A stretch of DNA of 64,000 bases from Bacteroidota bacterium. GTDB taxonomy: Bacteria; Bacteroidota; Bacteroidia; 2-12-FULL-35-15. Made by a program: the position numbers and the translations under genes. Shown one piece after another: positions 10,550-51,897 of the stretch (position 1 is its first letter; the number at the start of each line of letters is the position of its first letter). The stretch lies in contig JADKIU010000002.1 of assembly GCA_016722565.1 (NCBI GenBank), forward strand, positions 1,030,119 through 1,094,118, read 5' to 3'. The notes under the pieces are model-generated. The model saw nothing but the letters and a program-made list of their open reading frames with translations, searched no databases and had not been told where the DNA came from.

Positions 10550-10570
10550 GTTCACGATAAAAAATCAAAT

Positions 10571-10606
10571 AAAAAGCTCGACAAAATGTCGGGCTTTTTT
10601 TATTTT
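10571..10606. terminator. Bidirectional rho-independent terminator between the convergent lpdA and 10600..11004 genes
   Basis: Hairpin agctcgaca-aaa-tgtcgggct followed by T7. Confidence 0.7.
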
Positions 10607-11004: not shown

Positions 11005-11099
11005 TAGTAGAAATACCTATCATGCAAATATAGAAATATCAATGCAGGATAATCTACTTTCCTTTTTAGAAATTATTTAAATGAAACGGATGAGAGGGG

Positions 11100-11477: not shown

Positions 11478-11499
11478 TTGCTGCAAATTTACAACTTCA

Positions 11500-11832
11500 T
11501 CAATGTGCATCAAAGAAATAACGATTATTTTTCTTGGTATGCATCTTATGTTCAATTAACTGCAATGCTTCATCAACTAACAAAGCAGGTATTTCATGTG
11601 TCGTGCCATTTTCAACAACCTGTTGCATATAAATCAACGCATTGTTATCCTGGAGATACTCCTTCGCTCTGAATGAAATAAAATTACGGTTACCTGCTAA
11701 ATAAACCACTACATAAAAAGAGTCTTCCAGATCAAATGCCAATACTGCATCAATATCAAAACGCTGGGGCAAAGCATCTGCTTTTTCTAAAAGCAGATAA
11801 ATCAAATTATTATCATTTGAAATCTCAATCAT
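11500..11832 (-). CDS. Hypothetical 110-aa protein, probably co-transcribed with rsmB and the two paralogs
   Basis: ORF only. It is packed tightly between rsmB (4-bp overlap) and the 11100..11477 start. Confidence 0.35.
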   Translation of the reverse strand: MIEISNDNNLIYLLLEKADALPQRFDIDAVLAFDLEDSFYVVVYLAGNRNFISFRAKEYLQDNNALIYMQQVVENGTTHEIPALLVDEALQLIEHKMHTKKNNRYFFDAH

Positions 11833-29407: not shown

Positions 29408-30877
29408 TTAGTCTCCTTTATGGAAAGGTAAATATTTATGAAATTCAGGAACAATTTTCATTACGTATGCTAGTCCTACATAGGTAACCGTGATAACACT
29501 CGTCTTCACTACCATTGCAATAATTCCGGATTCAATAGTTGGCAATAAAAAAGTTATTCCAAAAGACAATCCAATCACCAACAGGATTTTCAAACTGGAT
29601 AAATCATAGGGCTGCATCTTATAAAAAATCAATATCAATAAAAACTTCGTTACATTATACAATACTGCCAACGCTCCCGTTACCAAAGCGGCTCCAATCA
29701 TTCCATAAACAGGAATCAGCCAGAGGTTAAAGATTAATGCTAGCACCATCAATACGATTAACAAAACTGTGCCATAAAGATATTTGGGCGAATTAAAAAT
29801 AATCGAAGTATTTACTCCCGTTGAAACATTTAAAAAGGCCGCACAACAGGATATGATTGTAACAGTAGCACCTTTATGATATTCTTCCGGCAACAAACCT
29901 AATAGTTCATGCACATTACTAATTATTCCCACCAACAAAATTCCACTTACCAACATCAAATATTTCACCGATTGATAATAGATTTTTTTTATGCTTTCAA
30001 AATCCTCGTTTGCGAATGCTTGCGCAACTTTCGAATGAGAAATACGTTCCAACGAGTTCAAGGGTATTTCAATGATCAATGAAATATATGCTGCTACTGC
30101 AAAAACACCTACATACGATAAATCCCAGTACTTGCCGATGATTACCGCATCCAAATGTTTTAAACTCAAGGAGGCAACATTGCTAAGTGTTAAAAACAAA
30201 CCATACCCAATTAATTTGTTCAATCCTACCCCTCTCAAGTAATGATTATCAATTTTAAGTGATGGTCTATCAATTTTATACAAATATCCACACATCCAGA
30301 TGGTTTGTAATAAATAGCTAAAAACAAAAAGGTGAATAAACTGAGAAAGCGATAGTAGTTTAAAATAATAAAAGACAATCAAAACAATAAAGAGTACACG
30401 TGATAAAATGCCTTCTAAAAATGTAATGATGGTTGTTTTAAAAAGCGATGATGAATATGCATTTAAAGCCATATTTACGCCCATAATGGTGGCAAACGGA
30501 AGTATCAAATCAAAATAATAGGTAAACATGGGTGATTGTTCTACATATTGACGAACAATCATGTCCTTAAAAGAATACACCAATACACCACAAACGATTG
30601 TCCCAACAAGTGGAAAAAGCATCATAAAACCAAAATAACCGTGGTGTCGTTTGTCTTCGTTTCTAAAAAAAGGAAAATATCGGGTTGTGATACTACTTAC
30701 TCCTAATGGTAAAATGGTTGCTAATAAACTGGCTGCAGCAACCAAAATTCTTGTTAATCCAAGTTCCTCGGGCTTTAAAAGATTCGGTTGAATAAACATT
30801 AAGCTCACAAAGCCAATAACAACACCAATATAGGTAATAAGTGTATTCTGAATTCCTTGCTTTTTAATTGTGCTCAA
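29408..30877 (-). CDS. wzx: Oligosaccharide flippase (MOP/Wzx family), 489 aa, paralog of 42499..43968
   Basis: About 12 TM helices; shares RYFPFFRNEDKRHHGYF and C-terminal MQPYDLSSLKI with the second copy. Confidence 0.7.
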   Translation of the reverse strand: MSTIKKQGIQNTLITYIGVVIGFVSLMFIQPNLLKPEELGLTRILVAAASLLATILPLGVSSITTRYFPFFRNEDKRHHGYFGFMMLFPLVGTIVCGVLVYSFKDMIVRQYVEQSPMFTYYFDLILPFATIMGVNMALNAYSSSLFKTTIITFLEGILSRVLFIVLIVFYYFKLLSLSQFIHLFVFSYLLQTIWMCGYLYKIDRPSLKIDNHYLRGVGLNKLIGYGLFLTLSNVASLSLKHLDAVIIGKYWDLSYVGVFAVAAYISLIIEIPLNSLERISHSKVAQAFANEDFESIKKIYYQSVKYLMLVSGILLVGIISNVHELLGLLPEEYHKGATVTIISCCAAFLNVSTGVNTSIIFNSPKYLYGTVLLIVLMVLALIFNLWLIPVYGMIGAALVTGALAVLYNVTKFLLILIFYKMQPYDLSSLKILLVIGLSFGITFLLPTIESGIIAMVVKTSVITVTYVGLAYVMKIVPEFHKYLPFHKGD

Positions 30878-30924: not shown

Positions 30925-31674
30925 TCACGTCATCGACTTTTTCGACAATCTATGAACAGGGAAACGAAATAAAATATACAAATGATTTAGGATTGTCATA
31001 AAAAAACCATAGTGTTTCGACATGATATTAAAACGTTCAAAAAGTGCCTTTTTTCTCCGTTTGTTAGACGTACCACCTTCTAAAAATTTAGAAATGTAAT
31101 TTTTCGTATTTACAATTCGAATTGATTTTTTCAAAATCGAAATCACCCAATCAATATCTGCACTAACGGAATAAGAAGTATCATAGGCCTCACACAAACT
31201 TCGTTTAGCAATAAAGGATTGATGAGAGACACACATTCCGTACTTCAAGCTCTTCCAATTCAGCTGCTCCGGGGGACTTAACCTTCTGTCGCCAAGCAGA
31301 TCTCCTTTTTGATTAACCACAGCAGTATTTCCATAATAAACATCTGCATCACCAAAAGAAAAAACAGACGCAATGGTTTCGTTGGCGAACAACTCATCAC
31401 CTGCATTTAAAAAAAGAACATAATCACCGGTAGCAACATTTAATCCTTTATTCATTGCATCATAAATCCCATTGTCTTTACCCGAAAGAATTACGGCTAT
31501 TTTAGACTGATATTTTTCAGCAATTTCGAGCGTACCATCCGAAGATGCACCATCAATAATAATGTACTCTACATTCGCATAGGTTTGATGAATGACACTT
31601 TTTATCGTGCGTTCAATCAATGAATGTCCGTTAAAAACAACAGTAATAATGCTTATTTTAGGATTAAATTGCAT
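30925..31674 (-). CDS. Glycosyltransferase family 2
   Basis: ISIITVVFNG...IIIDGASSDGT...DxD-like motif, and a QSF...KRS tail typical of GT2. Confidence 0.8.
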   Translation of the reverse strand: MQFNPKISIITVVFNGHSLIERTIKSVIHQTYANVEYIIIDGASSDGTLEIAEKYQSKIAVILSGKDNGIYDAMNKGLNVATGDYVLFLNAGDELFANETIASVFSFGDADVYYGNTAVVNQKGDLLGDRRLSPPEQLNWKSLKYGMCVSHQSFIAKRSLCEAYDTSYSVSADIDWVISILKKSIRIVNTKNYISKFLEGGTSNKRRKKALFERFNIMSKHYGFFMTILNHLYILFRFPVHRLSKKSMT

Positions 31675-32403
31675 TTACTTTTTATAAAAAATGCCGTTAC
31701 ATTGTAATACTTTTCCTGTCACATTATCCGTGAAAGCTGGTACAATACTGGTTAATACAAAGCCTTTTTGCTCCATATACTCCAACACTTGAGGTAGCAA
31801 CCATGTTTGATTTTCATATAACGGCACTAGCGAAATCTCCATTTCAATCCCTTTTGCCAGAGCAATCATTTCTGAAGCTCCTTTTAGCACTTCTTGCTCA
31901 AACCCTTGCACATCAATTTTCAAAAAAATGTTTTTTGAAGAACCGATATACGTTTTTGCAATTTCATCCAATGGATAAACAGTCACTTTCTCCTTTCCAA
32001 TAATCTTGGATTCAGGGGCGCCTTCAATATGTGTGTCCAACATGGTTAGAAGCGTGCTGCTAACCGAATTGGCAGAAATATTAATTTCAATTTCTTCCTT
32101 TTTTGAACCAATTGCGCAACGCGGAGCCACTGTCCAATTTGTATGGGATTTACTTGCATTTTCAATAATTGAATGAACAGATGACAAAGGTTCAAACGAA
32201 ACAATTTTCTGCTGATACCCAACATCCATTATTCCTGTAGCATATTGCCCTTTATTTGCTCCAATATCAAAAACCAAATCAATGCTATAGTGTTCGAATA
32301 GTTTAATACGTCTCAAATCTTCACTTGTAGCAGCATTGTACTTGCGTATTAAAATTCCGAAATTTTGAAATATTTTTTTTGTGATTCGTTCAAAGCTATT
32401 CAT
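31675..32403 (-). CDS. FkbM-family SAM-dependent methyltransferase (start uncertain; the ORF extends to 32541)
   Basis: The DLVFDIGANKGQYA motif and overall FkbM architecture. Confidence 0.65.
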   Translation of the reverse strand: MNSFERITKKIFQNFGILIRKYNAATSEDLRRIKLFEHYSIDLVFDIGANKGQYATGIMDVGYQQKIVSFEPLSSVHSIIENASKSHTNWTVAPRCAIGSKKEEIEINISANSVSSTLLTMLDTHIEGAPESKIIGKEKVTVYPLDEIAKTYIGSSKNIFLKIDVQGFEQEVLKGASEMIALAKGIEMEISLVPLYENQTWLLPQVLEYMEQKGFVLTSIVPAFTDNVTGKVLQCNGIFYKK

Positions 32404-32522
32404 TGCATCAAAAGTATTAGACTGCAATATTAAGGAATTTTGGGATGGTTTGGGAATTTTAAGTCCGCTAAAACCATTAAAAAACAAACCAATAAAGCAT
32501 AATTTTATTACATTTGTGAAGC

Positions 32523-33395
32523 ATGTCAGCTGAAAAATCATATAAAGAAGTGAGTGGATTTATCACTCAAATTGCAAACACTTGCATTTCTGTTTTAAAG
32601 GTATTTGTCCGCTCTAAATTCGGAGTGCATTTACCAACAGCTCAGGAAGAAACATGTATTGTATTGGGAAACGGCCCCTCACTTAAAAAATCATTTGAGA
32701 ACCATCCCGATTTTTTCACAAAGCATTCATTGATTTGCGTGAACAACTTTTCGCTTACACAATACTATGAAAAATTACAGCCAAAGTATTATGTGATGTT
32801 GGATCCAGGATACTGGTTTGGAAACAACCAAACGGTGATTGATACGATTAACTGCATCCAAACAAAAACAACTTGGGAAATGCATTTACTCCTGCCACCT
32901 GCTGCAAAAAAATCGGTTTTGCTTCAGCAACTGATTGAAAAAAACAAGAACATCCATCCTACTTATTTTAACTATACAGTTTTTAAAGGGTTCAAAAATA
33001 TTGCTCATCGTTTTTACAAAAAGAACTTGGCCATGATTCAAAGTCAGAATGTTTTGGTTGCCTCCGTTTTTCTAGGAATAAACATGGGATATAAAAAAGT
33101 GTATGTTTTTGGAGCAGATCATACCTGGCATGAAAATTTGCATGTGGATGAGAACAATGTTCTTTGCTTGAAAAATGTGCATTTTTATGAAAACGAAGAG
33201 CTAATAAAATACACTCCCTTCTATAAGGGAGTTCATACGAAAGAAACATTCCGTATGGACGAAATTCTAGTGACATGGGGAAAAACCTTTTATGGATATG
33301 TGGCATTGAATGAATATGCCGTTTCTCAGAATTGCACAATTTATAACGCAAGTGAAATTTCTTTTATAGACGCTTTTAAACGTATTAAACTGTAA
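32523..33395 (+). CDS. GT42/DUF115 (MAF_flag10)-like glycosyltransferase; candidate nonulosonic-acid (pseudaminic acid) transferase
   Basis: IVLGNGPSLK and VNNFSLTQYYEKL...MLDPGYW resemble the N-terminal motifs of Cst-II-type sialyltransferases and Maf proteins. Located beside the pse genes. Confidence 0.5.
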   Translation: MSAEKSYKEVSGFITQIANTCISVLKVFVRSKFGVHLPTAQEETCIVLGNGPSLKKSFENHPDFFTKHSLICVNNFSLTQYYEKLQPKYYVMLDPGYWFGNNQTVIDTINCIQTKTTWEMHLLLPPAAKKSVLLQQLIEKNKNIHPTYFNYTVFKGFKNIAHRFYKKNLAMIQSQNVLVASVFLGINMGYKKVYVFGADHTWHENLHVDENNVLCLKNVHFYENEELIKYTPFYKGVHTKETFRMDEILVTWGKTFYGYVALNEYAVSQNCTIYNASEISFIDAFKRIKL

Positions 33396-33398
33396 ATC

Positions 33399-34079
33399 AT
33401 GCTCGCTATTTTTAATAACCCTTCCACACATTGGTTCCGCTGGCTTTTCACAAAATGGAATCTTGAATTCAAATACCGTAAGCAAAAGTTAAAGTTGGAA
33501 TACATGGTGGAAATAAATAACTGCACCTTTAACAATTATAATACTATATACAAATATTCCCGTTTACGCGACTCTTCCTTTGGTGATTTCAGTTATGCCG
33601 CACGCAATTGTCAAATTTATAATACCAAAGTTGGCAAATTCACCTGCATTGGCCCTAATGTAAATACTGGCATGGGTGCTCATCCTTCAGCAGATTTTGT
33701 ATCCAGCCACCCGCTTTTCTATTCTACATTGGGTCAAAGCTCTGGAATGGTGATTGTAGACAAAAATCTTTTTGATGAATTTCCAGAAACCGCTATTGGC
33801 AATGATGTTTGGATAGGAAACAATGTAACAATTAAATACGGTGTAAACATTGGCAATGGAGCCATTATTGGTTCAGGAGCCGTTGTTACGAAGGATGTTG
33901 AACCTTACAGTATTGTGGGCGGTGTTCCAGCAAAAGTGATCAAATATCGATTCACAGACGAACAGATTGATTTTTTACAACAGTTCAAATGGTGGGACAA
34001 AGATCTTGAATGGTTGAAAGCAAATAAAGATAAGTTCCAAAATATTGGCGAATTTATGGCTCAAAATCCAATAAAATAA
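33399..34079 (+). CDS. Hexapeptide-repeat (LbH) acetyltransferase
   Basis: GNDVWIGNNVTIKYGVNIGNGAIIGSGAVVTKDVEPYSIVGGVPAKVIKYRF. Confidence 0.8.
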   Translation: MLAIFNNPSTHWFRWLFTKWNLEFKYRKQKLKLEYMVEINNCTFNNYNTIYKYSRLRDSSFGDFSYAARNCQIYNTKVGKFTCIGPNVNTGMGAHPSADFVSSHPLFYSTLGQSSGMVIVDKNLFDEFPETAIGNDVWIGNNVTIKYGVNIGNGAIIGSGAVVTKDVEPYSIVGGVPAKVIKYRFTDEQIDFLQQFKWWDKDLEWLKANKDKFQNIGEFMAQNPIK

Positions 34080-34170
34080 GAGCTTTTACTGCTATTCATC
34101 CAATCTTCAAAATCTTTGGTATTTCGCTAAACTCTGCTTATTTTTGGGTTTTATTTGAAAACCCTAAAAT

Positions 34171-35187
34171 ATGTTAGATTTAAACGGCAAATCAATTTTA
34201 ATTACCGGAGGTACCGGCTCATTAGGAAAGCATTTAACTAAAAATATTCTCTCCAAATTTCCCAAAGTAAAACGCTTGGTCATCTTCTCCAGAGATGAGC
34301 AAAAGCAATTTGAAATGGCACAAGAGTATTCTCACGCAAAATATCCGGCTATTCGTTACTTTATTGGCGATGTCAGAGATTTTGATCGTTTGAAAAAAGC
34401 ATTTACTGAGATTGATTACGTTATTCATGCTGCTGCCATGAAACATGTTCCCATTGCCGAATACAATCCGATGGAATGCGTAAAAACAAATGTACTGGGA
34501 GCAGAAAACGTTATCAATGCATCTATGGAAATGGGAATAAAAAATGTAGTTGCCTTATCTACAGACAAAGCAGCCGCTCCTATTAACTTATACGGTGCTA
34601 CAAAATTATGTTCAGACAAATTATTTGTAGCAGCAAATAACATCAGAGGAAAAGCAGATATTAAATTTTCTGTTGTGCGTTATGGAAATGTAATGGGTTC
34701 TAATGGCTCTGTAATTCCATTCTTTATGAAAAAGAAGAAAGAAGGTGTTTTGCCAATTACAGACCCAAATATGACACGCTTCAACATATCACTTCAAGGT
34801 GGGGTAGACATGGTTTTACATGCTATGGAAACAGCCTGGGGTGGAGAAATATTTGTACCTAAAATACCTTCATACAAAATTACCGATGTAGCAAAAGCGA
34901 TTGCCCCTGATTGCAAACAGGAAGTGATTGGCATCCGCCCTGGAGAAAAAGTGCACGAAGAAATGATTACTTCTTCCGATTCATTTTCAACATACGATTT
35001 AGGAAAATATTACGCGATACTACCACAGGTTCCCTGCTTTAAAATTGAAGATTTTACAAAACATTTTAATGCAAAATTAGTTCCGCAAGGATTTCAGTAT
35101 AACTCAGGTGAAAACACTGAATGGGTGAACGTTGATGAAATAAGAAAATTAATTGTGGAACATGTTGATTCGGAATTCACAGTTTAA
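34171..35187 (+). CDS. pseB: UDP-N-acetylglucosamine 4,6-dehydratase (inverting), PseB/FlaA1
   Basis: ILITGGTGSLGK, SRDEQKQFEM, YFIGDVRD, HAAAMKHVPIAEYNP, LYGATKLCSDKLFVAANN, GEIFVPKIPS. Near-collinear with PseB along its length. Confidence 0.9.
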   Translation: MLDLNGKSILITGGTGSLGKHLTKNILSKFPKVKRLVIFSRDEQKQFEMAQEYSHAKYPAIRYFIGDVRDFDRLKKAFTEIDYVIHAAAMKHVPIAEYNPMECVKTNVLGAENVINASMEMGIKNVVALSTDKAAAPINLYGATKLCSDKLFVAANNIRGKADIKFSVVRYGNVMGSNGSVIPFFMKKKKEGVLPITDPNMTRFNISLQGGVDMVLHAMETAWGGEIFVPKIPSYKITDVAKAIAPDCKQEVIGIRPGEKVHEEMITSSDSFSTYDLGKYYAILPQVPCFKIEDFTKHFNAKLVPQGFQYNSGENTEWVNVDEIRKLIVEHVDSEFTV

Positions 35188-35235
35188 CCAACTTTTCTAT
35201 AACAAACCTTAATCTTTACTTATTAATTAAATATA

Positions 35236-36813
35236 ATGCGCTCATATTACAGTCATTTGCAAGCGGTAAAAAGTACAGGAGAAGAAGTACTTATAACTCA
35301 AAAGCCGACCTTTAGATCATCGGCTATATTTCCCGTTTTACACAACAATGACTATTCATCAAAAGTTGTTTTTATGGGTTATTGGCTCTTGAAAAGAAAC
35401 ATCAAAGAAATAGGATTGCTTTATACCCTTCGAAGTGCCGAAGGAACAATATTATCTAGAAAATATTTACTTATAGATTCTGCCAAAGCATTTTCAATTC
35501 AATTAAGCGAATTCAGCGATAGTATTGATACTAATTTTATTGGTTCATTAGAGCTTGAAATATTTTCAACACAAGATCTTGTTTATCCTTATCCTGCATT
35601 TGTTCTGATTTATTTTGGAGATCATTTTTCCACAGCTGTTCATACGGTTGGTCGCATTTATAACGACATGGAGGATCTTGCAAAAAACGAAGAATATAAA
35701 GTTCGTGAATCAGGGTTTGATATATACGGCAATGATAATTTATCCCCTTTTGTTGCTTTTACTAATGGGCCAGTCAAAAACGACCAACCACAAATCACTT
35801 ATGAAATTAATGGTCCTGAACAAAAAACTGTCAAGGGCTCCTTCAATATATCTCAAGTAAAACCATTCGAAACTGTTTTTATAAAACTAAAAGAACATAT
35901 AGATCTTGCAACTATTTTAAACGGGGAAGCTGGCTCAATCAAAATCGGACATAACCTAGAAGGCTTCTTCCCAAGATTTGCAGTTGGTAATTTTGACGAA
36001 CATAAAAAATCAGTGAGTATCACACATTCTTACTACGACTGCTCTTCATTATCAGATGAAAAATCTTTTTGGAATCGTAAAGATGAACTAATGAACGACA
36101 GTTCTGTTTCCATTCCGCTTTATATAACAGGAAATTTGTATACACGAATTGCTATTTACCCGATTTTTTCACCTTCCGACTTCTCACTTTCATATGCTTT
36201 TTATAATGAGAGCGGACAACTTATAAAGTTCTTGGAGCACTATCACTTGATAAAAAGCGATGAAAATGCATACGAACAAATCGACTTCAAATCAATTCTT
36301 CAAAAAGAAAAGATTGACCTCGACAAACCAAAAACCGTTAATCTTATCTGTAACTGGCAAGACAAAAACAAGATTCCAACACGTGTCAAATTTGGATTAA
36401 ATATTGGAAAAGAAAGCGAAACACCTGAACTACCAACTAACATCTGTTTTGCACCTCAATTAGGAAATCCTGCTGTTTTGAAAAAAACAGGAACTTTCCG
36501 CTGGGCTCCTTTTATCAATATTGGAAGGTCAGAAGTTGTATTAACCAACTCCTCTTCGCTAAAGCAATATTCAACGCCTGCGAATGTGAAATTAAGTTTT
36601 CATAGAGAATGTGATGATCAAAGGATTCATCGGGAAATTAGTATTCCAGGCAATGGAAGTTTAACAATCGATTTGGGAACAGACAAAGAAATATCTTCTT
36701 TTTTAAATGAAAAAAGCGGATGGTTAACAGCGGTTTCTGATAATCCATTTTTAAACGGCTACTATTTTGATTTTTTTGAAAGCGGCTCAGTTGGAGCTGA
36801 TCATATATTTTAA
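35236..36813 (+). CDS. Hypothetical 525-aa soluble protein of unknown function embedded in the pse locus
   Basis: No recognisable motifs (no PLP, Rossmann or TM signature). Gene order and tight spacing with pseB and the methyltransferase suggest co-transcription. Confidence 0.4.
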   Translation: MRSYYSHLQAVKSTGEEVLITQKPTFRSSAIFPVLHNNDYSSKVVFMGYWLLKRNIKEIGLLYTLRSAEGTILSRKYLLIDSAKAFSIQLSEFSDSIDTNFIGSLELEIFSTQDLVYPYPAFVLIYFGDHFSTAVHTVGRIYNDMEDLAKNEEYKVRESGFDIYGNDNLSPFVAFTNGPVKNDQPQITYEINGPEQKTVKGSFNISQVKPFETVFIKLKEHIDLATILNGEAGSIKIGHNLEGFFPRFAVGNFDEHKKSVSITHSYYDCSSLSDEKSFWNRKDELMNDSSVSIPLYITGNLYTRIAIYPIFSPSDFSLSYAFYNESGQLIKFLEHYHLIKSDENAYEQIDFKSILQKEKIDLDKPKTVNLICNWQDKNKIPTRVKFGLNIGKESETPELPTNICFAPQLGNPAVLKKTGTFRWAPFINIGRSEVVLTNSSSLKQYSTPANVKLSFHRECDDQRIHREISIPGNGSLTIDLGTDKEISSFLNEKSGWLTAVSDNPFLNGYYFDFFESGSVGADHIF

Positions 36814-36830
36814 TTTTAAACATTCAATCA

Positions 36831-37469
36831 ATGAAAACAAAACAAATTGACTTTTGGAAAAGCGATTTCGGAAAAGAATACACAGATAGATGTTCACGCT
36901 CAGCCGAAGAGTGGGATAAATTTTATGTCAATACCTGGGGAAAAACAAAAATAGAAATGAATCAAAGTTTTCTTGGTTCCTTATCAAAAGATATAAAGAT
37001 ATTAGAAGTAGGTTGTAATACTGGAATGCAATTAAACGGATTGCAGCGTATGAACTTTGAAAATATTTATGGAGTAGAACTTCAATCTTATGCTGTTGAA
37101 GAAGCAAAAAAATATACAAAGAATATAAATATTATTTGCGGCTCAGGGTTTGACCTTCCTTTTAAAGATAAGTATTTTGATGTAGTTTGCACCAATGGAG
37201 TTCTTATACATATTTCACCTGATGATTTACCAAAAATAATGAGCGAGATGTATCGATGCTCAAAAAAATATATTTGGGGTTTTGAATACTTTGCAGAAAA
37301 TATTACGGAGATAGATTATCGTGGAAACAAAAATTATCTATGGAAAGCCGACTATGCAAGCTTGTTTATGAAACAGTTTCCCGATTTAAAATTGGTTAAA
37401 CGTGAAAAATATCCATACATAACCAATCCAGAGAATGTTGATCACATGTACCTTTTAGAAAAACAATAA
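36831..37469 (+). CDS. Class I SAM-dependent methyltransferase (resembles the pseudaminic-acid-biosynthesis-associated methylase family)
   Basis: ILEVGCNTGMQL motif I and DVVCTNGVLIHI motif; about 210 aa. Confidence 0.6.
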   Translation: MKTKQIDFWKSDFGKEYTDRCSRSAEEWDKFYVNTWGKTKIEMNQSFLGSLSKDIKILEVGCNTGMQLNGLQRMNFENIYGVELQSYAVEEAKKYTKNINIICGSGFDLPFKDKYFDVVCTNGVLIHISPDDLPKIMSEMYRCSKKYIWGFEYFAENITEIDYRGNKNYLWKADYASLFMKQFPDLKLVKREKYPYITNPENVDHMYLLEKQ

Positions 37470-37472
37470 GCC

Positions 37473-38279
37473 GTGATGACACCAGTTTCTATTAACAATT
37501 TTTTTAATGACAAAAACCCTTGGACACTGCGTTTGTTGGGGCATGTCCCTTTCCAGAAAAACAGAGATATTGAACAAGTAGAAAACGAATATAACTTAGA
37601 CAAATATGCTAAACTTCTTGCATTTGACTTTAAAACGGTTGAAGAATATAAAGCGAAAGAATTTGAATTAGGTGGCATGAATCCAATAACTGGAGAAATG
37701 CATATTTCATGTGGCGAAGAGATATTTAAAACAAGTGTAAAAGTTGCCAGAGAAAAATATTACGAACTAATTTTATCAACTTTAAAAAAATACCCATCAA
37801 AAAATTATTGTGAACTAGGCTGTGGCTATGGTTACAATCTACATTTAATCGGTAGCAACGCCTACGGAGGTGAGTATTCAATAAACGCAGTAAATCTTGG
37901 AAAAAAAATAGGCTTACCTGTAACCGAATTCAATTACTACAACGAAAAAGATTATGATTTTATAATGCCTGACACAACTATTTTTACAGCTCATAGCATT
38001 GAACAAATTCCTGATGCTACAATTATCATCAACAATCTGGAAAAACAAAAATCAAAAATAAATTATGTTGTTCACTTCGAACCCACTGTAATAAAAGAGC
38101 GAACAAGCCTGCTTGGACTAATGCGGAACAAATACATGGAACTGAATGATTATAACAGAAATCTATTGACCATCTTGCAAGAAAGAAACGACATAGAAAT
38201 TCTGGAATTAAACAAAGATATTTTCGGATTGGTTCCATTAAATACAACCAACCTGATTGTTTGGAAATTTAAAAAATAA
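37473..38279 (+). CDS. Second SAM-dependent methyltransferase-like protein
   Basis: ELGCGYGYNL (motif I) with a downstream acidic-loop pattern. Confidence 0.45.
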   Translation: MMTPVSINNFFNDKNPWTLRLLGHVPFQKNRDIEQVENEYNLDKYAKLLAFDFKTVEEYKAKEFELGGMNPITGEMHISCGEEIFKTSVKVAREKYYELILSTLKKYPSKNYCELGCGYGYNLHLIGSNAYGGEYSINAVNLGKKIGLPVTEFNYYNEKDYDFIMPDTTIFTAHSIEQIPDATIIINNLEKQKSKINYVVHFEPTVIKERTSLLGLMRNKYMELNDYNRNLLTILQERNDIEILELNKDIFGLVPLNTTNLIVWKFKK

Positions 38280-38282
38280 CAC

Positions 38283-39020
38283 GTGCCTGCTACTACTCCA
38301 CATATCGGTATCATTTCACAAGCAAGAATGACGAGTTCCCGTTTACCTGGAAAAATTTTTAAGAAAATCAACAGAAAATCATTGTTACAATACCATATTG
38401 AACGGTTACAAAAAACAGGGTTCGACATTGCAATTGCCACTACAACAAATGCAACGGATGATGTTGTTGCTGATTTTGCAGCCAAACAAACCATTGCTTG
38501 TCACCGTGGAAGCGAAAACAATGTACTCAGCAGATTTTACCAAACTGCTATAAAATTCAACTATGATATTATTGTAAGGGTAACTTCCGACTGCCCCTTA
38601 ATAGATCAACATCTTATTCGAAATGCTGTGGAAAAATACATGCAATTCAACAACCCCAATTTATATATTAGCAATAGTATTGAACGGACATTTGCAAGAG
38701 GTTTTGATTTTGAAATATTTTCATTTCAATTGTTAGAAGATGCCTTCAAAAATGCGACTGACAAATCAGATCTGGAACATGTTACGCCTTACATTTGGAA
38801 AAACAAATCTGGAAAAACTGATTTCTATTTCATAAAACAAACCACTGACAACAGTCACCTCAGAATAACAGTGGATACATCCGAAGATTTTGAATTAATC
38901 AAAGTTTTAATTGAAAAACATCAGGCAGATACATTACCTTATTCAGAAATAGAAACTATTCTATTGAAGCACCCTGAACTGGTTGCTTTGAACGCACACA
39001 TCGAACAGAAAAAAGCTTAA
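38283..39020 (+). CDS. Cytidylyltransferase of the CTP_transf_3 family (SpsF/PseF-like; likely CMP-pseudaminic acid synthetase)
   Basis: IGIISQARMTSSRLPGK nucleotide-binding motif; about 245 aa; position within the pse locus. Confidence 0.6.
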   Translation: MPATTPHIGIISQARMTSSRLPGKIFKKINRKSLLQYHIERLQKTGFDIAIATTTNATDDVVADFAAKQTIACHRGSENNVLSRFYQTAIKFNYDIIVRVTSDCPLIDQHLIRNAVEKYMQFNNPNLYISNSIERTFARGFDFEIFSFQLLEDAFKNATDKSDLEHVTPYIWKNKSGKTDFYFIKQTTDNSHLRITVDTSEDFELIKVLIEKHQADTLPYSEIETILLKHPELVALNAHIEQKKA

Positions 39021-39024
39021 CAAC

Positions 39025-39863
39025 ATGGCAAAAGAACTCAATATCGACAAAGCAAGTTTTGAAAGAGACGGATATGTTGTGGTGAAAAACGTTTTCACAG
39101 CAGAAGAAATTAACACCTTGCGAAAAGAAGCATATCAACAATACGAAATCGACAAAGAGAAAAAGTTGGACTTTCTGGTTACCAACATGAAAACAAAAGC
39201 GAAATACACTCGTGGAGATTTATTGAGCAAAGAACTACTGCGTCATGCGTTATTAGACGAACGTATTTTAAAAATTGCAAAAACCATTCTAGGAAAAATG
39301 AAATAATCTATTTTGGAGACAGTTCATATCAAATTGGAACGGGAACACGTGGCTTTCACCGCGATTGCATCGACCGCACAAATTTGGATGGACCAGATTG
39401 GCAAGGTGAGTATACGTTGGTGCGATTAGGAATTTATTTGCAGGATCATAAAAATTATAGCGGAGGATTAAAAATAAAATTGGGAACCCACAAACAAGCT
39501 GACGGAAAACCAGTTTTTGTAGACAGCGAAGTGGGTGATGTTGCAATCTGGAGTTTAAAAACCGTTCACAGTGGAAATGCTGTACGACTAAAATTATTTC
39601 CGAATTATTCAATCAACACTTCGGGAAAAGAAAATATAATTCCAGAATTTCTTAAAAAAGATCAGCAGCACGAACGGATTTCTTTATTCATGACGTATGC
39701 TTTAAAATCCAGTCATTTAGACCGTTACATCAACGAGTATACATTAAAAAGAAAAGACACAATTGAACATGCGAAAGCATCTAAGTTCGATGATTCGGTA
39801 GTTTCATTGGCCAAACAAAGAGGCGTAGAGATTCTGAAACCAATCCCCGAATACGGTGGTTAA
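39025..39863 (+). CDS. PhyH-family Fe(II)/2-oxoglutarate dioxygenase, split by a homopolymer frameshift at A5 run 39294-39298
   Basis: N-terminal ERDGYVVVKNVF. Adding one A gives ...ILGKNEIIYFGDSSYQIGTGTRGFHRDCID... (HxD), continuing into WSLKTVHSGNA (distal His). Confidence 0.65.
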
Positions 39864-39875
39864 TTTTTCAACGAC

Positions 39876-41384
39876 ATGCAGTTCAAAATGAAACGTAAAA
39901 TAATATTTCGCGCTGATGGTGGAAAGTCAATCGGAATGGGGCATGTTGTTCGAAGTTGTGCATTGGCAGCAATGTTGAAAGATAATTTCACTATTGTTTT
40001 TGCCATCCAACAGCCGATTGAAAGCGTTTTGAAAACAATTCATTCTGTAACAGAAACGATTCTGCACCTTCCGCTTACCGAAGATTTTGATCAGGATGCT
40101 GTCAACTTCTCAGAGTTTTTGGAATCAACGGATATTGTTGTTTTGGATGGTTATAACTTTAAAACCGATTACCAAAAAACGATTCAAAAAAAAGGCTGTA
40201 AATTACTTGTAATTGATGATCTTCATAGCTGGCATCACTTTGCTGATGCAATTTTAAACCATGCAGACGGAATAAAAGAGTCGGTTTATTCAAAAGAAAA
40301 TAACAGCAAACTCTATCTTGGTTTAGATTATGTTTTGTTACGCAAACCATTTTTGGAAAATACCTCAGAAACAAGAAAAATAAGTGCTGTTAAAAAAGCA
40401 TTTATCAGTATGGGAGCTGCGGATATAAATAATCTGACACAGAAATTTACTGAAGGACTTATTCAAATAAAGGAGATTGAAGAAATACATCTCATGCTGG
40501 GTTCCATCAATCCAAACCTTACAAGCATTGATACTCTCATTGCAAACAATAAACAAATTAAAATAATCAAACACTTTGAAATTTCGGCTGAACAATTAGC
40601 TGACTTGCTAAAAAAGTGCGACATCGCTATTTGTCCTGCCAGCAGCATCTCACTTGAATGCTGTGCAATTGGAATCGGATTGATTTCCGGCTACACTGCC
40701 GAAAATCAAAAAGGAATACTTCAGGGATTGGCAAATAAAAATGTCATTCTCAATTTAGGTGATTTTAATGAAATAGCAGTAGCAACAATTACTGCAGAGC
40801 TAAAAAGAATCGTTGACACGCCTCAACAATTAAATCAACTAATCGAAAATCAGAAAAAGTTGATTGACGGAAATTCCCCAGCAAGATTGCTAAAAATAGT
40901 TAAAGAGCTGATTTCCGAGAAAATACACTTTAGATTTGCAAAGGAAACGGATGTTGATGTTTATTACAAATGGACCAACGACCCTGCTGTGAGAATTAAT
41001 TCATACAATCAGTCAGAAGTTACGTATGAAAATCATGTAAAATGGTTTCATTCGAAATTAGCTTCTCAGAATTGTTTTATGTATTATTTTTTAAACGAAG
41101 AAAACATTCCTATCGGGCAAATACGCATTGAGAAAGGTGAAAAAGAGACGGTAATCGGAATATCAATCGACTCGACACAGCGTGGAAAAGGCCTTGCAAG
41201 TAGAATGCTTAAAATGGCTTCTGAAGATTACTTAAAAAAGCATACCTTAGAAGTGATTACTGCATACATTAAAGTAGAAAACACATCCTCCTATCAGAGT
41301 TTTATTAAAGCTGGTTACGGGAACGAAGAGCTGGTTACCGAGCAAGGAAGTAAGAGTTATAAATTAATAAAAAAATCAGTTTAG
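39876..41384 (+). CDS. pseG: PseG (UDP-6-deoxy-AltdiNAc hydrolase, GT-B-like) fused to a C-terminal GNAT acetyltransferase (PseH-like)
   Basis: N-terminal KIIFRADGGKSIGMGHVVRSCALAAML (PseG signature). The C-terminal 150 aa has a GNAT fold (...IGQIRIEKGEKETVIGISIDSTQRGKGLASRML...). Confidence 0.75.
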   Translation: MQFKMKRKIIFRADGGKSIGMGHVVRSCALAAMLKDNFTIVFAIQQPIESVLKTIHSVTETILHLPLTEDFDQDAVNFSEFLESTDIVVLDGYNFKTDYQKTIQKKGCKLLVIDDLHSWHHFADAILNHADGIKESVYSKENNSKLYLGLDYVLLRKPFLENTSETRKISAVKKAFISMGAADINNLTQKFTEGLIQIKEIEEIHLMLGSINPNLTSIDTLIANNKQIKIIKHFEISAEQLADLLKKCDIAICPASSISLECCAIGIGLISGYTAENQKGILQGLANKNVILNLGDFNEIAVATITAELKRIVDTPQQLNQLIENQKKLIDGNSPARLLKIVKELISEKIHFRFAKETDVDVYYKWTNDPAVRINSYNQSEVTYENHVKWFHSKLASQNCFMYYFLNEENIPIGQIRIEKGEKETVIGISIDSTQRGKGLASRMLKMASEDYLKKHTLEVITAYIKVENTSSYQSFIKAGYGNEELVTEQGSKSYKLIKKSV

Positions 41385-41385
41385 A

Positions 41386-42426
41386 ATGACTGACATAAAA
41401 ATTGGAAACTACATCATAGGAAATGGCCACAAGCCATTTATCATTGCTGAAATGAGCGGCAACCATAATCAATCGCTTGACCGAGCATTGGAATTGGTAG
41501 ATGCGGCAGCCGAAGCAGGTGCTCATGCATTAAAACTTCAAACGTACACTGCAGATACAATCACAATGAAAGGTGCAATGACCATTGACGATAAAAATTC
41601 TTTGTGGAATGGAAAGGAGCTACACGATCTTTACAAAATGGCTTATACTCCATGGGAATGGCACAAAGCAATATTTGACCGGGCAAAAGAAAAAGGAATG
41701 ATTGCATTCAGCTCTCCCTTCGATGAGACTGCAGTAGATTTTTTAGAATCGCTGAATGTTCCCCTCTATAAAATCGCATCGTTTGAAAACACACATCACC
41801 CTTTATTGAAAAAAGTCGCTGCCACCGGAAAACCTGTTATCATTTCAAGTGGCGTAACAACTCGTGAAGACATTACAGAAAGTATCGAAGTATTGAGAAA
41901 AGCAGGTTGCAAAAACATTATTTTATTAAAATGCACCAGTACATATCCTGCAACTCCCGAAAACACAAATCTTTTAACGATTCCTGATTTCATAAATTCA
42001 TTCAACTGTATTGTGGGATTATCCGATCACACCATGGGAGTTGGTGCGTCTGTTGCAGCTGTTGCATTGGGAGCAAGAGTAATAGAGAAACATTTTACGC
42101 TCAGAAGAGCTGACGGAGGTGTTGACAGTGCTTTTTCATTAGAACCGGAAGAATTGAAATCCTTGGTTGTTGAAACTGAACGAGCTTTTTTATCATTAGG
42201 AGAAATTCAAAAAGGAATTTTACCTGCTGAGGAAAAAAGCGTACAATTCAAGCGCTCCATCTTTGTTTCTAAAGACGTAAAAAAGGGAGAAATCTTATCT
42301 GCAGAAAATTTAAAAATTATTCGCCCAGCAAAAGGCTTAACACCAAAGCATTGGGATGAAGTGGTTGGAAAAACCGCAAAAGCAGATATAAAAGCTGGAA
42401 CGCCTTTAAGCTGGGACTGCATCTAA
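41386..42426 (+). CDS. pseI: Pseudaminic acid synthase (NeuB family)
   Basis: NeuB TIM-barrel motifs (IIAEMSGNHNQSL, KIASFE, GLSDHT) and a C-terminal SAF domain. Confidence 0.85.
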   Translation: MTDIKIGNYIIGNGHKPFIIAEMSGNHNQSLDRALELVDAAAEAGAHALKLQTYTADTITMKGAMTIDDKNSLWNGKELHDLYKMAYTPWEWHKAIFDRAKEKGMIAFSSPFDETAVDFLESLNVPLYKIASFENTHHPLLKKVAATGKPVIISSGVTTREDITESIEVLRKAGCKNIILLKCTSTYPATPENTNLLTIPDFINSFNCIVGLSDHTMGVGASVAAVALGARVIEKHFTLRRADGGVDSAFSLEPEELKSLVVETERAFLSLGEIQKGILPAEEKSVQFKRSIFVSKDVKKGEILSAENLKIIRPAKGLTPKHWDEVVGKTAKADIKAGTPLSWDCI

Positions 42427-42498
42427 AATTTAGGAATAAGGATTATTAAATAATTAAAGTAAATCCTAATTCTAAAAATCCTTAATCCGGAATTTCAA

Positions 42499-43968
42499 AT
42501 GGGAATAATAGAAAAACAAGCTACAAAAAATGCCATCTACTCTTATTTAGGAGCAGGCTTAGGCTTTTTTACAGTTATGTGGATGGCGCACCTTTTAACT
42601 CCTGCCGAAAATGGCGCCAGAGGCTTGTTAATTTCCTACTCCGCTTTGTTTGCTCAATTTGCTAACCTAGGTTTTACTTCTGTGACCAATCGTTTTTTTC
42701 CTTATTTCAGAAATAAAGAAAAAGGACATCATGGATTTTTATTTTATGCCCTCATCATTACTCTCATTGGCTTTTTATTATGCTATATTGTTTTCATTTT
42801 TCTTCAACCACAACTCATTGAAAAAAGCCAGGAAAAATCTCCCCTATTTATTACATTTTTGTATTACCTAATGCCATTAACTTTTTTCACTGTATTCTTT
42901 AATATATTCGATAGTTACTTAAGAGCATGTTATAGCTCTGTTATTGGATCCTTTAGTAAGGATTTTTTACAAAGAGTGCTAATTCTCATTGTGCTGACGT
43001 TCTATTTTTTAAAACTAATCGACTTCAAAGTTTTTATTCTACTTTACATTGTTGTCACATGCTTATCAACTATCATATTGCTAGTTTATATCATTTTGCA
43101 AAAAGAATGGCATGTAAGACCTGTCCGCGGTTTTATGAGTAAGGAACTGAGAACAGAAATGGTGAAGCTGGGCACCTACTCCATCCTTGCGGGTGGCGCA
43201 GGAGCAGTAGTTCTTAACATTGATGCCATAATGGTTAATTCTATATTGGGTGAAGAAAAAACAGGAATCTATTCCATTGCTTTTCAAATCGGTACCATCA
43301 TTTTAATTCCCGCGCGCTCGTTGTATCGTATCATGACCAGTATAGTAGCAGAAGCATTCAAAAAAGACGATATCAAAGAAGTTGCAGCACTTTACAGAAA
43401 GTCATGTAATAGTCAATTAGCTATTGGAATATTATTGTTTATCGGAGTGTTTGTGAATATTGACAATATTATGCAGTTAATACCAGCAGAATATGCATCC
43501 GGGAAAAACGTAATTTTAATTTTGAGTTTAGGTTATTTAATAGAAATGGCAACCGGCATCAATCAAGTGATTATCGCAAATTCAAAATACTATAAGTACG
43601 ATACATTTTTCGTATTCTTGATGGTAGGGGTTGTTATCATTGCCAACCTCATCTTTATTCCTATTTATGGGATCATGGGGTCAGCAATTGCAACAGCGCT
43701 TACTGTTTCCGCAAACAATTTTTTACGCTTCTTATTTTTAAAAATAAAATACAACATGCAACCTTATGATCTCAATTCACTAAAAATTATTCTGATTGCA
43801 GTGGTGTCTATCCTTCCAAGTTTGTTCATTCCCGCACTCAACAAATACGTTGATATCGTTTTAAGGAGTGGAATTGTAGGTGGTATATTTATTTTATTAA
43901 TGCTAAAAACAGAAGCAACACCGGAATTGAATAATAAAATCCGAAAAAATCTGAAACGGTTTTTATGA
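42499..43968 (+). CDS. Second Wzx-like oligosaccharide flippase (MOP family), paralog of 29408..30877
   Basis: 489 aa; NRFFPYFRNKEKGHHGF and NMQPYDLNSLKI motifs shared with the first copy. Confidence 0.65.
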   Translation: MGIIEKQATKNAIYSYLGAGLGFFTVMWMAHLLTPAENGARGLLISYSALFAQFANLGFTSVTNRFFPYFRNKEKGHHGFLFYALIITLIGFLLCYIVFIFLQPQLIEKSQEKSPLFITFLYYLMPLTFFTVFFNIFDSYLRACYSSVIGSFSKDFLQRVLILIVLTFYFLKLIDFKVFILLYIVVTCLSTIILLVYIILQKEWHVRPVRGFMSKELRTEMVKLGTYSILAGGAGAVVLNIDAIMVNSILGEEKTGIYSIAFQIGTIILIPARSLYRIMTSIVAEAFKKDDIKEVAALYRKSCNSQLAIGILLFIGVFVNIDNIMQLIPAEYASGKNVILILSLGYLIEMATGINQVIIANSKYYKYDTFFVFLMVGVVIIANLIFIPIYGIMGSAIATALTVSANNFLRFLFLKIKYNMQPYDLNSLKIILIAVVSILPSLFIPALNKYVDIVLRSGIVGGIFILLMLKTEATPELNNKIRKNLKRFL

Positions 43969-49005: not shown

Positions 49006-49821
49006 ATGAAAAACTTAATTAATTCCGCTTATTTAAGCGAAGAAAAAATAAAAGAAATTCGTGCCCAATTCGAATCTGCTGTTCCCTGCAAACACATTGC
49101 ATTGCCCAATTTCCTTTTGGACGATGTTGCCAATACCCTTTACGAAAACTTCCCAAAACTGGAAGCCTTGAACGTAAAACGTAAAAGCATCAATGAAAAC
49201 AAATCGGAGGAATACCATCTTGACAGATACCATCCGCAATTTAATGAGTTGCGCGACTTTCTAAACTCTCCTGAAATGTATGCTTGGATGAGTAAAGTGA
49301 CCGGCACAGAAGGATTAAGCTCCACCTACGACTCATTGGGCTCAGGCGTTCATCAAGGTGGCCCAGGAAGTTTTGTGGATATCCATGTAGATGTGAACTC
49401 CAATACCGCAGCGAAATTGCACAGACGCTACAACCTATTGATTTATTTAAACAAACATTGGAAAGACGAATACGGTGGAGCCTTAGAATTTTGGGATAAG
49501 GATGTAAAAAATTGCATGTCGAAAGTGATGCCGTATTTTAATCAAGCAGCGATTATGGTTACGGACGAAACTTCCTACCATGGTTATGCAAAAATCAATA
49601 TCCCGGAAGGAGAAAGTCGAAAGTCATTCTATTGCTATTACTACACTCCTGTTGGAAAAGATTTTGTTTACCGCGACTCTCGCTTCAAAACTCGTCCGGA
49701 TGAAAGTATGACGAAAACAGCAATCACCGAAATAAAAGAAACCATAAAAATTAATGCGAAGAAATTTTTAAAATTCTTAGGTGTTACTTCTTTAGATTTT
49801 CAAGATAAAAACAAAAAATAA
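49006..49821 (+). CDS. 2OG-Fe(II) oxygenase superfamily protein (prolyl-hydroxylase-like)
   Basis: HVDVNS...H...R facial-triad-like spacing in FVDIHVDVNSNTAAKLHRRYNLLIYLNKHWKDEYGGALEF. Confidence 0.5.
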   Translation: MKNLINSAYLSEEKIKEIRAQFESAVPCKHIALPNFLLDDVANTLYENFPKLEALNVKRKSINENKSEEYHLDRYHPQFNELRDFLNSPEMYAWMSKVTGTEGLSSTYDSLGSGVHQGGPGSFVDIHVDVNSNTAAKLHRRYNLLIYLNKHWKDEYGGALEFWDKDVKNCMSKVMPYFNQAAIMVTDETSYHGYAKINIPEGESRKSFYCYYYTPVGKDFVYRDSRFKTRPDESMTKTAITEIKETIKINAKKFLKFLGVTSLDFQDKNKK

Positions 49822-50637
49822 TTGGAATTAAACGGAAAAATAGTTTGGATTACTGGAGCTTCATCAGGAATTGGTGAAGCTCTTGCATATACTGCTGCCA
49901 AAGAAGGCGCAAAACTTGTTTTATCCGCTCGTAGAGAAGAAGAACTGAAACGAGTTGCCGCAAATTGTTCCACAGGAATCCATTCGGATAAGATTGAAGA
50001 ACAAAATTATTTTGTACTTCCGCTTGATTTAGAACATACCGATAACATCGAAGAGCAAGTCAATTTGGTGATTCAAAAATTCGGACGAATTGATGTGCTC
50101 ATCAATAACAGCGGCATGGGACACCGCACCAAAGTGGTGAACACACCCACTGCCATCGACCGAAGAGTGATGGAAGTTAACTTTTTTGGCACCATCAACC
50201 TCACCAAAGCGGTTGCCAAAAGAATGCAACATCAAAAAAGCGGCAAACTGGTAGTTGTAACCAGTATTATGGGGAAATACGGGCTCCCACTCTATGCAAC
50301 TTATTCCGCTTCCAAACATGCTTTATTTGGTTTTTTTGAATCATTGCGACAAGAACTCTACAACGACAACGTAAGTGTGCTCATCGCCACTCCCGGCTTT
50401 ATCAATACTGATGTAAGCACCAAACTGCTAAAAGAAGACGGAACACCTTATGGTATCAAAAGCGATGCACAAGAAAAAGGGATGTCCGCATTGGATTGTG
50501 CAAAAGGAATTGTAAAAGCTATCAAAAACGACCGTGATCATAAATACATCGGTAAGTATGAAATTTTTTCAGTGTATGTAAAACAGTATTTCCCAAAATT
50601 GTTTTATAAGTTGATGCGAAAAATGACCAAAGACTAA
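49822..50637 (+). CDS. Short-chain dehydrogenase/reductase (SDR)
   Basis: TGASSGIGEA (TGxxxGxG), NNSG, YSASK catalytic motif. Confidence 0.85.
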   Translation: MELNGKIVWITGASSGIGEALAYTAAKEGAKLVLSARREEELKRVAANCSTGIHSDKIEEQNYFVLPLDLEHTDNIEEQVNLVIQKFGRIDVLINNSGMGHRTKVVNTPTAIDRRVMEVNFFGTINLTKAVAKRMQHQKSGKLVVVTSIMGKYGLPLYATYSASKHALFGFFESLRQELYNDNVSVLIATPGFINTDVSTKLLKEDGTPYGIKSDAQEKGMSALDCAKGIVKAIKNDRDHKYIGKYEIFSVYVKQYFPKLFYKLMRKMTKD

Positions 50638-50717
50638 TCAATATTAGTTTTCCTACTGACGAATATCATCTTTTTTATTCCCGATACTCCCTACCCTTGC
50701 AGCTGAATTGATTCAGT

Positions 50718-51755: not shown

Positions 51756-51897
51756 TACAAACCAAAACACTAATCTGACAGAAGTCAGATTATAGTATCC
51801 AATCCTCTGACCAGCATCATTTATTCAACTAAACAAACCGTCTAATTTTGCTCGAGTGAATATTACTCTTTCAAATAAACAACTAAAATAAATTATC

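Follow-up and report, generated by a model that had tools for sequence, protein, structure and literature searches.

Can a pseudaminic acid (Pse) operon dispense with pseC, and does the protein found in its place take over the missing step? This question is raised by a 64,000-nucleotide stretch of DNA from a Bacteroidota bacterium (assembly GCA_016722565.1, contig JADKIU010000002.1, positions 1,030,119 to 1,094,118 of the forward strand). We refer to the whole stretch as the window, and to the metagenome-assembled genome that it comes from as the MAG. In the window, pseB is followed directly by a gene encoding a 525 amino acid protein of an unnamed family, here called U525, and the aminotransferase PseC is not encoded. 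The initial annotation offered several explanations: pseC might lie elsewhere in the genome, U525 might substitute for PseC or modify the pathway, or the sugar might be a variant nonulosonate. Our preferred reading, to which we assign a probability of about 0.65, is that the operon has lost pseC, that U525 is an accessory protein and no PseC substitute, and that the C4 aminotransferase is supplied in trans.

The missing gene is not simply hidden. When five bona fide PseC sequences were used as tblastn queries against all 64 kb, the best match had an E value of 0.31. Similarly, Pfam scans covering 37 of the 49 open reading frames (ORFs) of at least 150 codons, including all those of at least 270, detected no aminotransferase domain. 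These searches rule out a DegT-type gene concealed in the window. What the initial annotation had said of the locus, that it has no DegT or PseC-type gene, thus holds for the window as a whole. Misassembly of the junction can also be ruled out. The same layout, with 48 bp between pseB and U525, is common to nine independently assembled contigs from other samples (the YUYA23-1 series and ERZ27257534 from ENA, SRR25727125 from Logan, and 3300006056 from JGI). Five such contigs, compared with the window, are 97.5-98.2% identical at the DNA level. We conclude that loss of pseC from this locus is real.

Comparison with related loci bears on whether U525 replaces PseC. A scan of species-representative genomes gave 67 loci, in which ORFs were called, proteins clustered and hidden Markov models (HMMs) built for the Pse genes; neighbour counts were taken over 65 of these loci, and individual loci are given L numbers. 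PseC is present in 31 of the 65 U525 loci, and in 17 its gene directly precedes U525. Bacteroidota loci mostly have the order pseB-pseC-U525-(TylF-type O-methyltransferase)-methylase-pseF-pseG(-H)-pseI. Between pseB and U525, loci L001, L012 and L020 carry genes whose products score 466-480 bits with the PseC model TIGR03588 (cutoff 423.5). L024 has PseC two genes before U525, and L032 has it after U525; both proteins also exceed the cutoff, so that canonical PseC from the five loci spans 457-480 bits. Hence, because U525 normally sits beside a canonical PseC, it is not a PseC replacement, and the substitution proposed by the initial annotation is not supported. The accompanying remark, that U525 is "in the pseC position", is correct in that U525 adjoins pseB, but only because pseC has dropped out before it.

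The phylogeny of U525 agrees. In a neighbour-joining tree, U525 of the window is sister to that of L001 (78% identity), which has retained the order pseB-pseC-U525, and both lie within a clade where this order is the rule. The pseC-less junctions between pseB and U525 fall at separate places on the tree (the window, L008, and L010 with L011). Locus L021 has the same junction; its truncated U525 was not placed. The tree indicates three or more separate origins of the pseC-less junction. Note that U525 proteins from pseC-less loci have no shared, distinguishing or convergent substitutions, and that the window protein matches the consensus at every column conserved at 95% or more. The neighbours of U525 are also telling. 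A methyltransferase dependent on S-adenosylmethionine (SAM), of the TIGR03587, TylF or U268 type (U268 is described below), is encoded no more than two genes away from U525 in 36 of the 65 loci. The TIGR03587 methylase is the most frequent neighbour, and adjoins U525 in most Bacteroidota loci. By its distribution, U525 is a regular and widespread accessory gene of Pse operons.

How could pseC be lost while the genes on either side were kept? The best match to PseB of the window (92% identity) is in locus L077, where the hexapeptide acyltransferase (80%), the cytidylyltransferase (75%) and the fusion of PseG to a GNAT domain (61%) also have counterparts. The order in L077 (2830-7847) is pseB, pseC, a membrane acyltransferase of the Acyl_transf_3 family, the cytidylyltransferase, PhyH and PseG-GNAT. 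Hence, the acyltransferase stands where the window has U525, the methylase and U268. In L085 (6979-13378), pseB and pseC are followed by PhyH, HD, SDR and kinase genes before pseF. Because the window (34171-39020), L077 and L085 carry different inserts, the stretch between pseC and pseF is a variable slot in which tailoring genes are swapped. The ancestral order would have been a gene for an MptE-like protein, acyltransferase, pseB, pseC, variable tailoring cassette, pseF, (PhyH), pseG-H, pseI and flippase. The window may then combine an L077-like backbone with a U525-methylase-U268 cassette resembling those of L001 and L003. Most likely, pseC was lost through cassette exchange: recombination with its left breakpoint at the end of pseB would have removed pseC and brought pseB to within 48 bp of U525.

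The genes left behind have not been released from selection. We compared the window with five independent contigs and calculated the ratio of nonsynonymous to synonymous polymorphism (pN/pS). The ratio is 0 for PseB, 0.04 for U525, 0.07 for the TIGR03587 methylase, 0.13 for U268, 0.08-0.15 for the cytidylyltransferase, 0.20 and 0.14 for the PseG and GNAT domains, 0.04 for PseI, and 0-0.06 for the two halves of a PhyH dioxygenase. We conclude that all remaining genes of the operon are under purifying selection. Since the enzymes that use the 4-amino sugar or act after it (the GNAT domain as putative PseH, PseG, PseI and the cytidylyltransferase) are both intact and selected, the pathway appears to be still running. 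C4 transamination would then most likely fall to an aminotransferase of the DegT family whose gene lies in another part of the genome. Several points make this likely. The downstream genes have been kept under selection, and their orthologues work with PseC in L077, L001 and L003; L011, itself without pseC, has a formyltransferase, an enzyme that requires an amine; and genes of this pathway are often scattered. Thus, L006 and L007 have U525, pseG, GNAT and a NeuB-cytidylyltransferase fusion, with no pseB or pseC in the fetched DNA (10 kb each side for L007), and several SAR11 loci have pseI with neither pseB nor pseC nearby. In Tannerella forsythia, another member of the Bacteroidota, deletion of pseC abolishes the nonulosonate on glycans (PMC5378307).

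The L011 formyltransferase (11591-12526; domains Formyl_trans_N and Formyl_trans_C) is found at the usual place of PseH. A homologue in L032 was assigned by clustering rather than by domain scan. These genes suggest N-formylated Pse in the Sphingobacteriaceae and Aureispira loci concerned.

Our next concern is U525 itself. A word-indexed search found 495 homologues, all of about 525 amino acids and all annotated as hypothetical. Together with the low pN/pS given above, this establishes that the ORF is a real gene. A profile search of 1.84 billion cluster representatives (50% identity) gave 755 U525 clusters at E <= 1e-3. Among the 150 matches listed, full-length members have approximately 500-560 residues and no fusions, while shorter ones are fragment-like. 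Neither U525 nor 55 homologues match any Pfam or NCBIfam model, and the U525 profile has zero matches among PDB sequences. One homologue is named DUF2961 in UniRef; we rejected this name since none of 55 members matches the Pfam model even at E <= 1. Nor is U525 a DegT/DnrJ/EryC1 protein. It matches neither PF01041 nor TIGR03588, and the predicted fold is all-beta, not the alpha/beta fold of enzymes dependent on pyridoxal phosphate (PLP). The protein is soluble (59.6 kDa, pI 5.7), with a maximum Kyte-Doolittle value of 1.03 over 19 residues and no signal peptide. Hence, the description in the initial annotation, of a soluble protein without familiar motifs directly after pseB, was accurate.

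Structure prediction and a fold search, as the initial annotation had suggested, gave an all-beta protein and no fold match. Specifically, AlphaFold2, supplied with 55 sequences, produced a confident model of approximately 38 strands (predicted local distance difference test score, pLDDT, 90.6; predicted template modelling score, pTM, 0.91). Foldseek comparisons of this model gave template modelling (TM) scores of at most 0.14 against the PDB and 0.16 against BFVD. We also considered an internal duplication. The hhalign scores (N- against C-terminal half, E 0.004 and probability 9%; domain 2 against domain 4, E 4e-4 and 34%) are too weak for such a claim. Some 60 columns of the alignment are invariant from Archaea to Bacteria, many of them polar (His, Asp, Glu, Arg, Lys and Cys). 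They include E106, E108, H136, R140, D147, H264, D268, K385, C404, K417, D522 and H523. This pattern suggests a catalytic site or a specific ligand-binding site.

Taking conservation and gene order together, U525 probably works on nonulosonic acids, as a new tailoring enzyme or as a partner protein, and its substrate is probably a Pse intermediate. As a cytoplasmic enzyme, or as a partner that the neighbouring methyltransferases require, it could act after PseC and before PseF, with a UDP-sugar or an intermediate of Pse as substrate; the outcome would be a methylated or otherwise decorated Pse. We put the chance that U525 is an enzyme at slightly under even. Of the ideas in the initial annotation, modification of the pathway by U525 fits the position of the gene, in the variable tailoring slot next to methyltransferases. 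A variant nonulosonate is plausible as a tailored Pse, given two methyltransferases, PhyH and the hexapeptide acyltransferase; there is no sign of an amine-free product.

U525 is found beside Pse genes in Bacteroidota, two gammaproteobacterial MAGs, Omnitrophota, Peribacteria, Nitrosarchaeum and several SAR11 loci. A PseA-like amidotransferase is encoded near U525 in L030, L041 and L045. The Nitrosarchaeum gene (L042) lies beside pseB, pseC and a cytidylyltransferase. Elsewhere, the context differs. In the SAR11 loci L045, L049, L053, L055-L057 and L067, U525 is beside a TylF-type methyltransferase, a SIS-domain protein or a PseA-like amidotransferase. In marine Thaumarchaeota (L035, L039 and L040), the neighbours are housekeeping genes only. 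Six Chlamydiota-like loci (L050, L051, L054, L064, L065 and L066) have U525 divergent beside one to three large MptE-like/DUF115 proteins of 580-1010 residues (near 10001-11600 in loci fetched with 10 kb of upstream flank); the one scanned, from L050, also has MORN repeats. The arrangement hints at nonulosonate-type glycosylation in environmental chlamydiae. The initial annotation would have been refuted by a canonical pseC elsewhere together with an unrelated 525-residue protein that also occurs outside glycan loci. Such occurrence is seen in marine Thaumarchaeota, but most loci are nonulosonate-related. A literature search on the U525 family, and on nonulosonates in SAR11 and Thaumarchaeota, found nothing on the protein.

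The coordinates given by the initial annotation are correct. Its range, 34171 to 42426, also contains two genes that it did not name, both of which encode methyltransferases and follow U525. One is a clear member of TIGR03587. The name of this model gives no partner or substrate, and a full-text literature search by name or accession found nothing. The other encodes U268, called as 267 residues in other assemblies (start ATG at 37476). Its family has at least 209 homologues, mostly annotated as hypothetical. No Pfam or NCBIfam match is significant, the best in Pfam having an E value of 0.084. The AlphaFold2 model (pLDDT 93.7) gave 883 Foldseek matches in the PDB, all of them methyltransferases, with probability 1.00 for KijD1, DnrK, BpumL and others. 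The SAM-binding motif ELGCGYG, of the GxGxG type, is invariant. On the strength of the model, U268 is assigned as a class I SAM methyltransferase. Note that U268 served as the positive control for the fold-search pipeline applied to U525.

Four other explanations have to be weighed against loss of pseC with amination in trans, and two of them concern the state of the pathway. The operon could be a decaying remnant, dead since pseC was lost. In addition to the missing gene, the PhyH gene is split by a frameshift at 39294, where an A-run has five residues rather than six, and an indel in a second A-run, at 41369, changes the last residues of PseG-GNAT. However, both indels are of 1 bp, and five other assemblies of the species have neither; the dioxygenase, which lies within the range covered by the initial annotation, is split in the window but whole (279 residues) in those assemblies. 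Similar splits affect unrelated genes in the window. An M61 glycyl aminopeptidase (7242-8992, minus strand) is divided between two consecutive ORFs (profile positions 2-74 and 73-118), and an Amidase_3 gene (658-1906, minus strand) has positions 1-99 and 93-171 in two overlapping ORFs. For these reasons the indels are most simply read as homopolymer errors of a long-read MAG, and probably do not reflect decay. With pN/pS no higher than 0.20 for any gene of the operon, both PhyH halves included, a dead pathway is barely credible. Alternatively, the pathway could run without an amine. The 4-keto product of PseB would be reduced, hydrolysed and condensed with phosphoenolpyruvate, to give a nonulosonate with a 7-hydroxy in place of the 7-acylamino group. 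The absence of PseC from the window is consistent with this, as are a GNAT domain that falls far short of the PseH cutoff (39.9 against 93.1 bits), and so need not N-acetylate a 4-amine, and a cytidylyltransferase that is no PseF equivalog. Yet domain scans found no spare SDR or ketoreductase in the operon. PseG and PseI score well above equivalog cutoffs that were trained on enzymes of diacetamido sugars, and PseC belongs to each of the orthologous backbones of L077, L001 and L003, which share the GNAT fusion, PhyH and cytidylyltransferase with the window. Furthermore, the L011 formyltransferase requires an amine in a locus that lacks pseC. We consider an amine-free product highly improbable.

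The remaining two explanations concern U525. As a PLP-independent or otherwise novel enzyme, it could aminate the PseB product, or bypass its amination, making pseC dispensable. In a bolder form, U525 would found an enzyme family with an unseen all-beta fold, acting on a 4-keto or 4-amino UDP-sugar intermediate. Dispensability of PseC would, if true, explain why pseC was lost repeatedly (at least three times) right before U525. In the window, L008, L010, L011 and L021, U525 is directly after pseB and the DNA fetched contains no PseC gene; among the PseC clusters checked, none pointed to a native-type pseC moved elsewhere in this MAG, and the fold has no characterised counterpart. Conversely, PseC is kept with U525, and usually adjacent, in almost half of the loci, and the U525 proteins of pseC-less loci have no specific substitutions. 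U525 is also present where there is no pseB at all (L006, L007, Chlamydiota and Thaumarchaeota), an all-beta sandwich has no known precedent as a transaminase, and three of the four other pseC-less loci are on short contigs (2.5-9.8 kb). Both forms of this explanation are extremely improbable. Alternatively, U525 may have no catalytic role: its beta-sandwiches could serve as a scaffold or in binding, as in a carrier or chaperone that handles nonulosonate intermediates or Maf-type transferases. The model does have tandem domains of beta-sandwich or jelly-roll-like type, and Foldseek finds faint likeness only to Ig-like, arrestin-like and capsid jelly-roll proteins. In Chlamydiota-like loci, moreover, its divergent neighbours are arrays of large MptE-like/MORN proteins, and biosynthesis genes are lacking in the vicinity. 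Against this, His, Asp, Glu, Arg, Lys and Cys are prominent among the invariant positions, which persist between domains of life at identities of 34-45%; the protein is strictly single-copy, of constant length and architecture, with no fusions; and its gene lies inside biosynthetic operons, between enzyme genes. We regard a purely structural role as unlikely, though it deserves some weight.

Loss of pseC with amination in trans remains our preferred reading, and some observations weigh against it or its parts. No aminotransferase was found in the 64 kb. We also looked for a relocated gene of the native type, using PseC of L001 as the query and recognising the MAG by accessions beginning MBL03; an exact protein match (MBL0329772.1, locus tag IPP64_10225, on a contig of 1.26 Mb) had tied the window to this NCBI MAG. 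Among the best 120 of more than 8000 PseC clusters, the 20 sourced from NCBI were checked, and no accession of this MAG was seen. This is a weak counter-signal, which leaves room for a more divergent DegT enzyme. The recombination scenario draws solely on mosaic identities. The case for U525 as an enzyme comes from its conservation pattern and genomic context, and the model matches no solved structure. Finally, U525 of Chlamydiota and marine Thaumarchaeota has no Pse biosynthesis genes within 10 kb.

We compared the window with known systems. Canonical pse loci (pseB-pseC-pseH-pseG-pseI-pseF), from Campylobacter jejuni, Helicobacter pylori and T. forsythia ATCC 43037, share PseB, PseG and PseI with the window, where the roles of PseH and PseF would be taken by the GNAT domain and by a cytidylyltransferase of CMP-sugar type. 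Unlike these loci, the window has no pseC within 64 kb, has PseG fused to GNAT, and adds U525, two SAM methyltransferases, PhyH, a hexapeptide acyltransferase and an MptE-like protein. Sister-type loci of uncultured Bacteroidota, Spirosoma and Hymenobacter (L001, L003-L005, L012-L020, L024-L033 and L044) have the same genes, order and orientation. Identities to the window are 56-78% (Bacteroidia and Spirosoma) or 44-47% (Hymenobacter) for U525, 58-87% for PseB and 60-84% for the methylase. Unlike the window, they have retained pseC, either just before U525 or a short distance away, and many have a TylF-type O-methyltransferase in place of U268. Maf proteins (motility-associated factor, DUF115/MptE-like) are transferases of pseudaminic or legionaminic acid in flagellin glycosylation. 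The operon in the window opens with an MptE-like gene, orthologues of which hold the same position in L001, L003, L004, L008, L012 and others. Because its domain is that of Maf-type nonulosonate transferases, the product is a candidate Pse transferase. U525, which is beside MptE-like proteins with MORN repeats in Chlamydiota-like loci, is itself unlike Maf proteins in both sequence and fold. As in T. forsythia (PMC5378307), the pse genes of the window are in a glycan operon with flippases. The Pse transferase of T. forsythia has a TagB domain, and DUF115 is not mentioned in the paper; hence, we do not use it as a precedent for the MptE-like gene.

The PseC-replacement idea fails on comparison with related loci, and a wrong annotation is thereby avoided. 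U525 emerges as an unnamed family, without recognised domains, tied to nonulosonic acid loci of no fewer than eight bacterial and archaeal groups. The carriers include abundant ocean microbes (SAR11 and ammonia-oxidising Thaumarchaeota) as well as environmental Chlamydiota. Solving its function would add a step to the cell-surface sugar chemistry that shapes interactions with phages, grazers and hosts. In addition, core genes such as pseC can leave a locus while the pathway stays under selection, which calls for caution when pathway completeness is judged from MAGs.

The features of the glycan locus are collected in Table 1. Genes from 32523 to 43968 form a single plus-strand operon with intergenic gaps of at most 91 bp. 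As in the initial annotation, which named the fusion pseG-pseH, pseB, the pseG-GNAT fusion, pseI and the cytidylyltransferase are all present. PseB, PseG and PseI are above their equivalog cutoffs; PseI is below the NeuB cutoff. The GNAT domain matches Acetyltransf_3 (E 8e-12) and scores 39.9 bits with the PseH model TIGR03585. The cytidylyltransferase scores 19.8 bits with the PseF model TIGR03584 (cutoff 205.7), and its orthologues hold the pseF position in related loci.

Table 1. Glycan locus of the window: features, coordinates, strand and basis of assignment.
Feature	Coordinates	Strand	Basis and remarks
Wzx-type flippase (Polysacc_synt_3)	29408..30877	-	Pfam; divergent arm of glycan locus
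GT2 glycosyltransferase	30925..31674	-	Pfam; divergent arm
FkbM-family methyltransferase	31675..32541	-	Pfam PF05050; divergent arm
MptE-like/DUF115 protein, 290 aa	32523..33395	+	PF01973, 34.4 bits (cutoff 34.6); first gene of operon
Hexapeptide-repeat acyltransferase (Vat/CatB-like)	33399..34079	+	
pseB, inverting UDP-GlcNAc 4,6-dehydratase	34171..35187	+	TIGR03589, 513.4 bits (cutoff 407.75)
AT-rich pseB/U525 junction, 48 bp	35188..35235	.	Site of pseC in relatives; no pseC remnant
U525, 525 aa, unnamed family	35236..36813	+	Starts 48 bp past pseB stop
Pseudaminic acid biosynthesis-associated SAM methyltransferase	36831..37469	+	TIGR03587, 249.7 bits (cutoff 112)
U268, divergent class I SAM methyltransferase, 268 aa	37473..38279	+	Predicted fold; no Pfam match
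CTP_transf_3 cytidylyltransferase, pseF position	38283..39020	+	PF02348, 90 bits
PhyH-family Fe/2OG dioxygenase, split by 1-bp deletion	39025..39863	+	Deletion at 39294; intact elsewhere (279 aa)
pseG (UDP-sugar hydrolase) fused to GNAT domain (putative PseH role)	39876..41384	+	TIGR03590, 204.5 bits (cutoff 153.55)
pseI, pseudaminic acid synthase	41386..42426	+	TIGR03586, 487.4 bits (cutoff 340.25)
Second Wzx/MATE-type flippase	42499..43968	+	Last gene of operon

The window has a GC content of approximately 36% and encodes C-terminal domains of Type IX secretion (Por_Secre_tail and CHU_C), both signs of a Bacteroidota origin. A scan for sigma-70 promoters and terminators, which is ill-suited to Bacteroidota, found fewer sites than in a shuffled control. 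Two gene sets outside the glycan locus were also noted. At 21103-25191, a Y-family polymerase (IMS/ImuB or DinB-like, 385 residues) is followed by a DnaE2-like paralogue of the DNA polymerase III alpha subunit (976 residues); the pair looks like an error-prone polymerase cassette of the kind that acts in damage-induced mutagenesis. At 49006-52743, four adjacent plus-strand genes encode a 2OG-Fe(II) oxygenase, an SDR, a radical SAM/SPASM enzyme and a small protein with a Por_Secre_tail domain, sorted by the Type IX system. This set may serve to modify a peptide or secreted protein.

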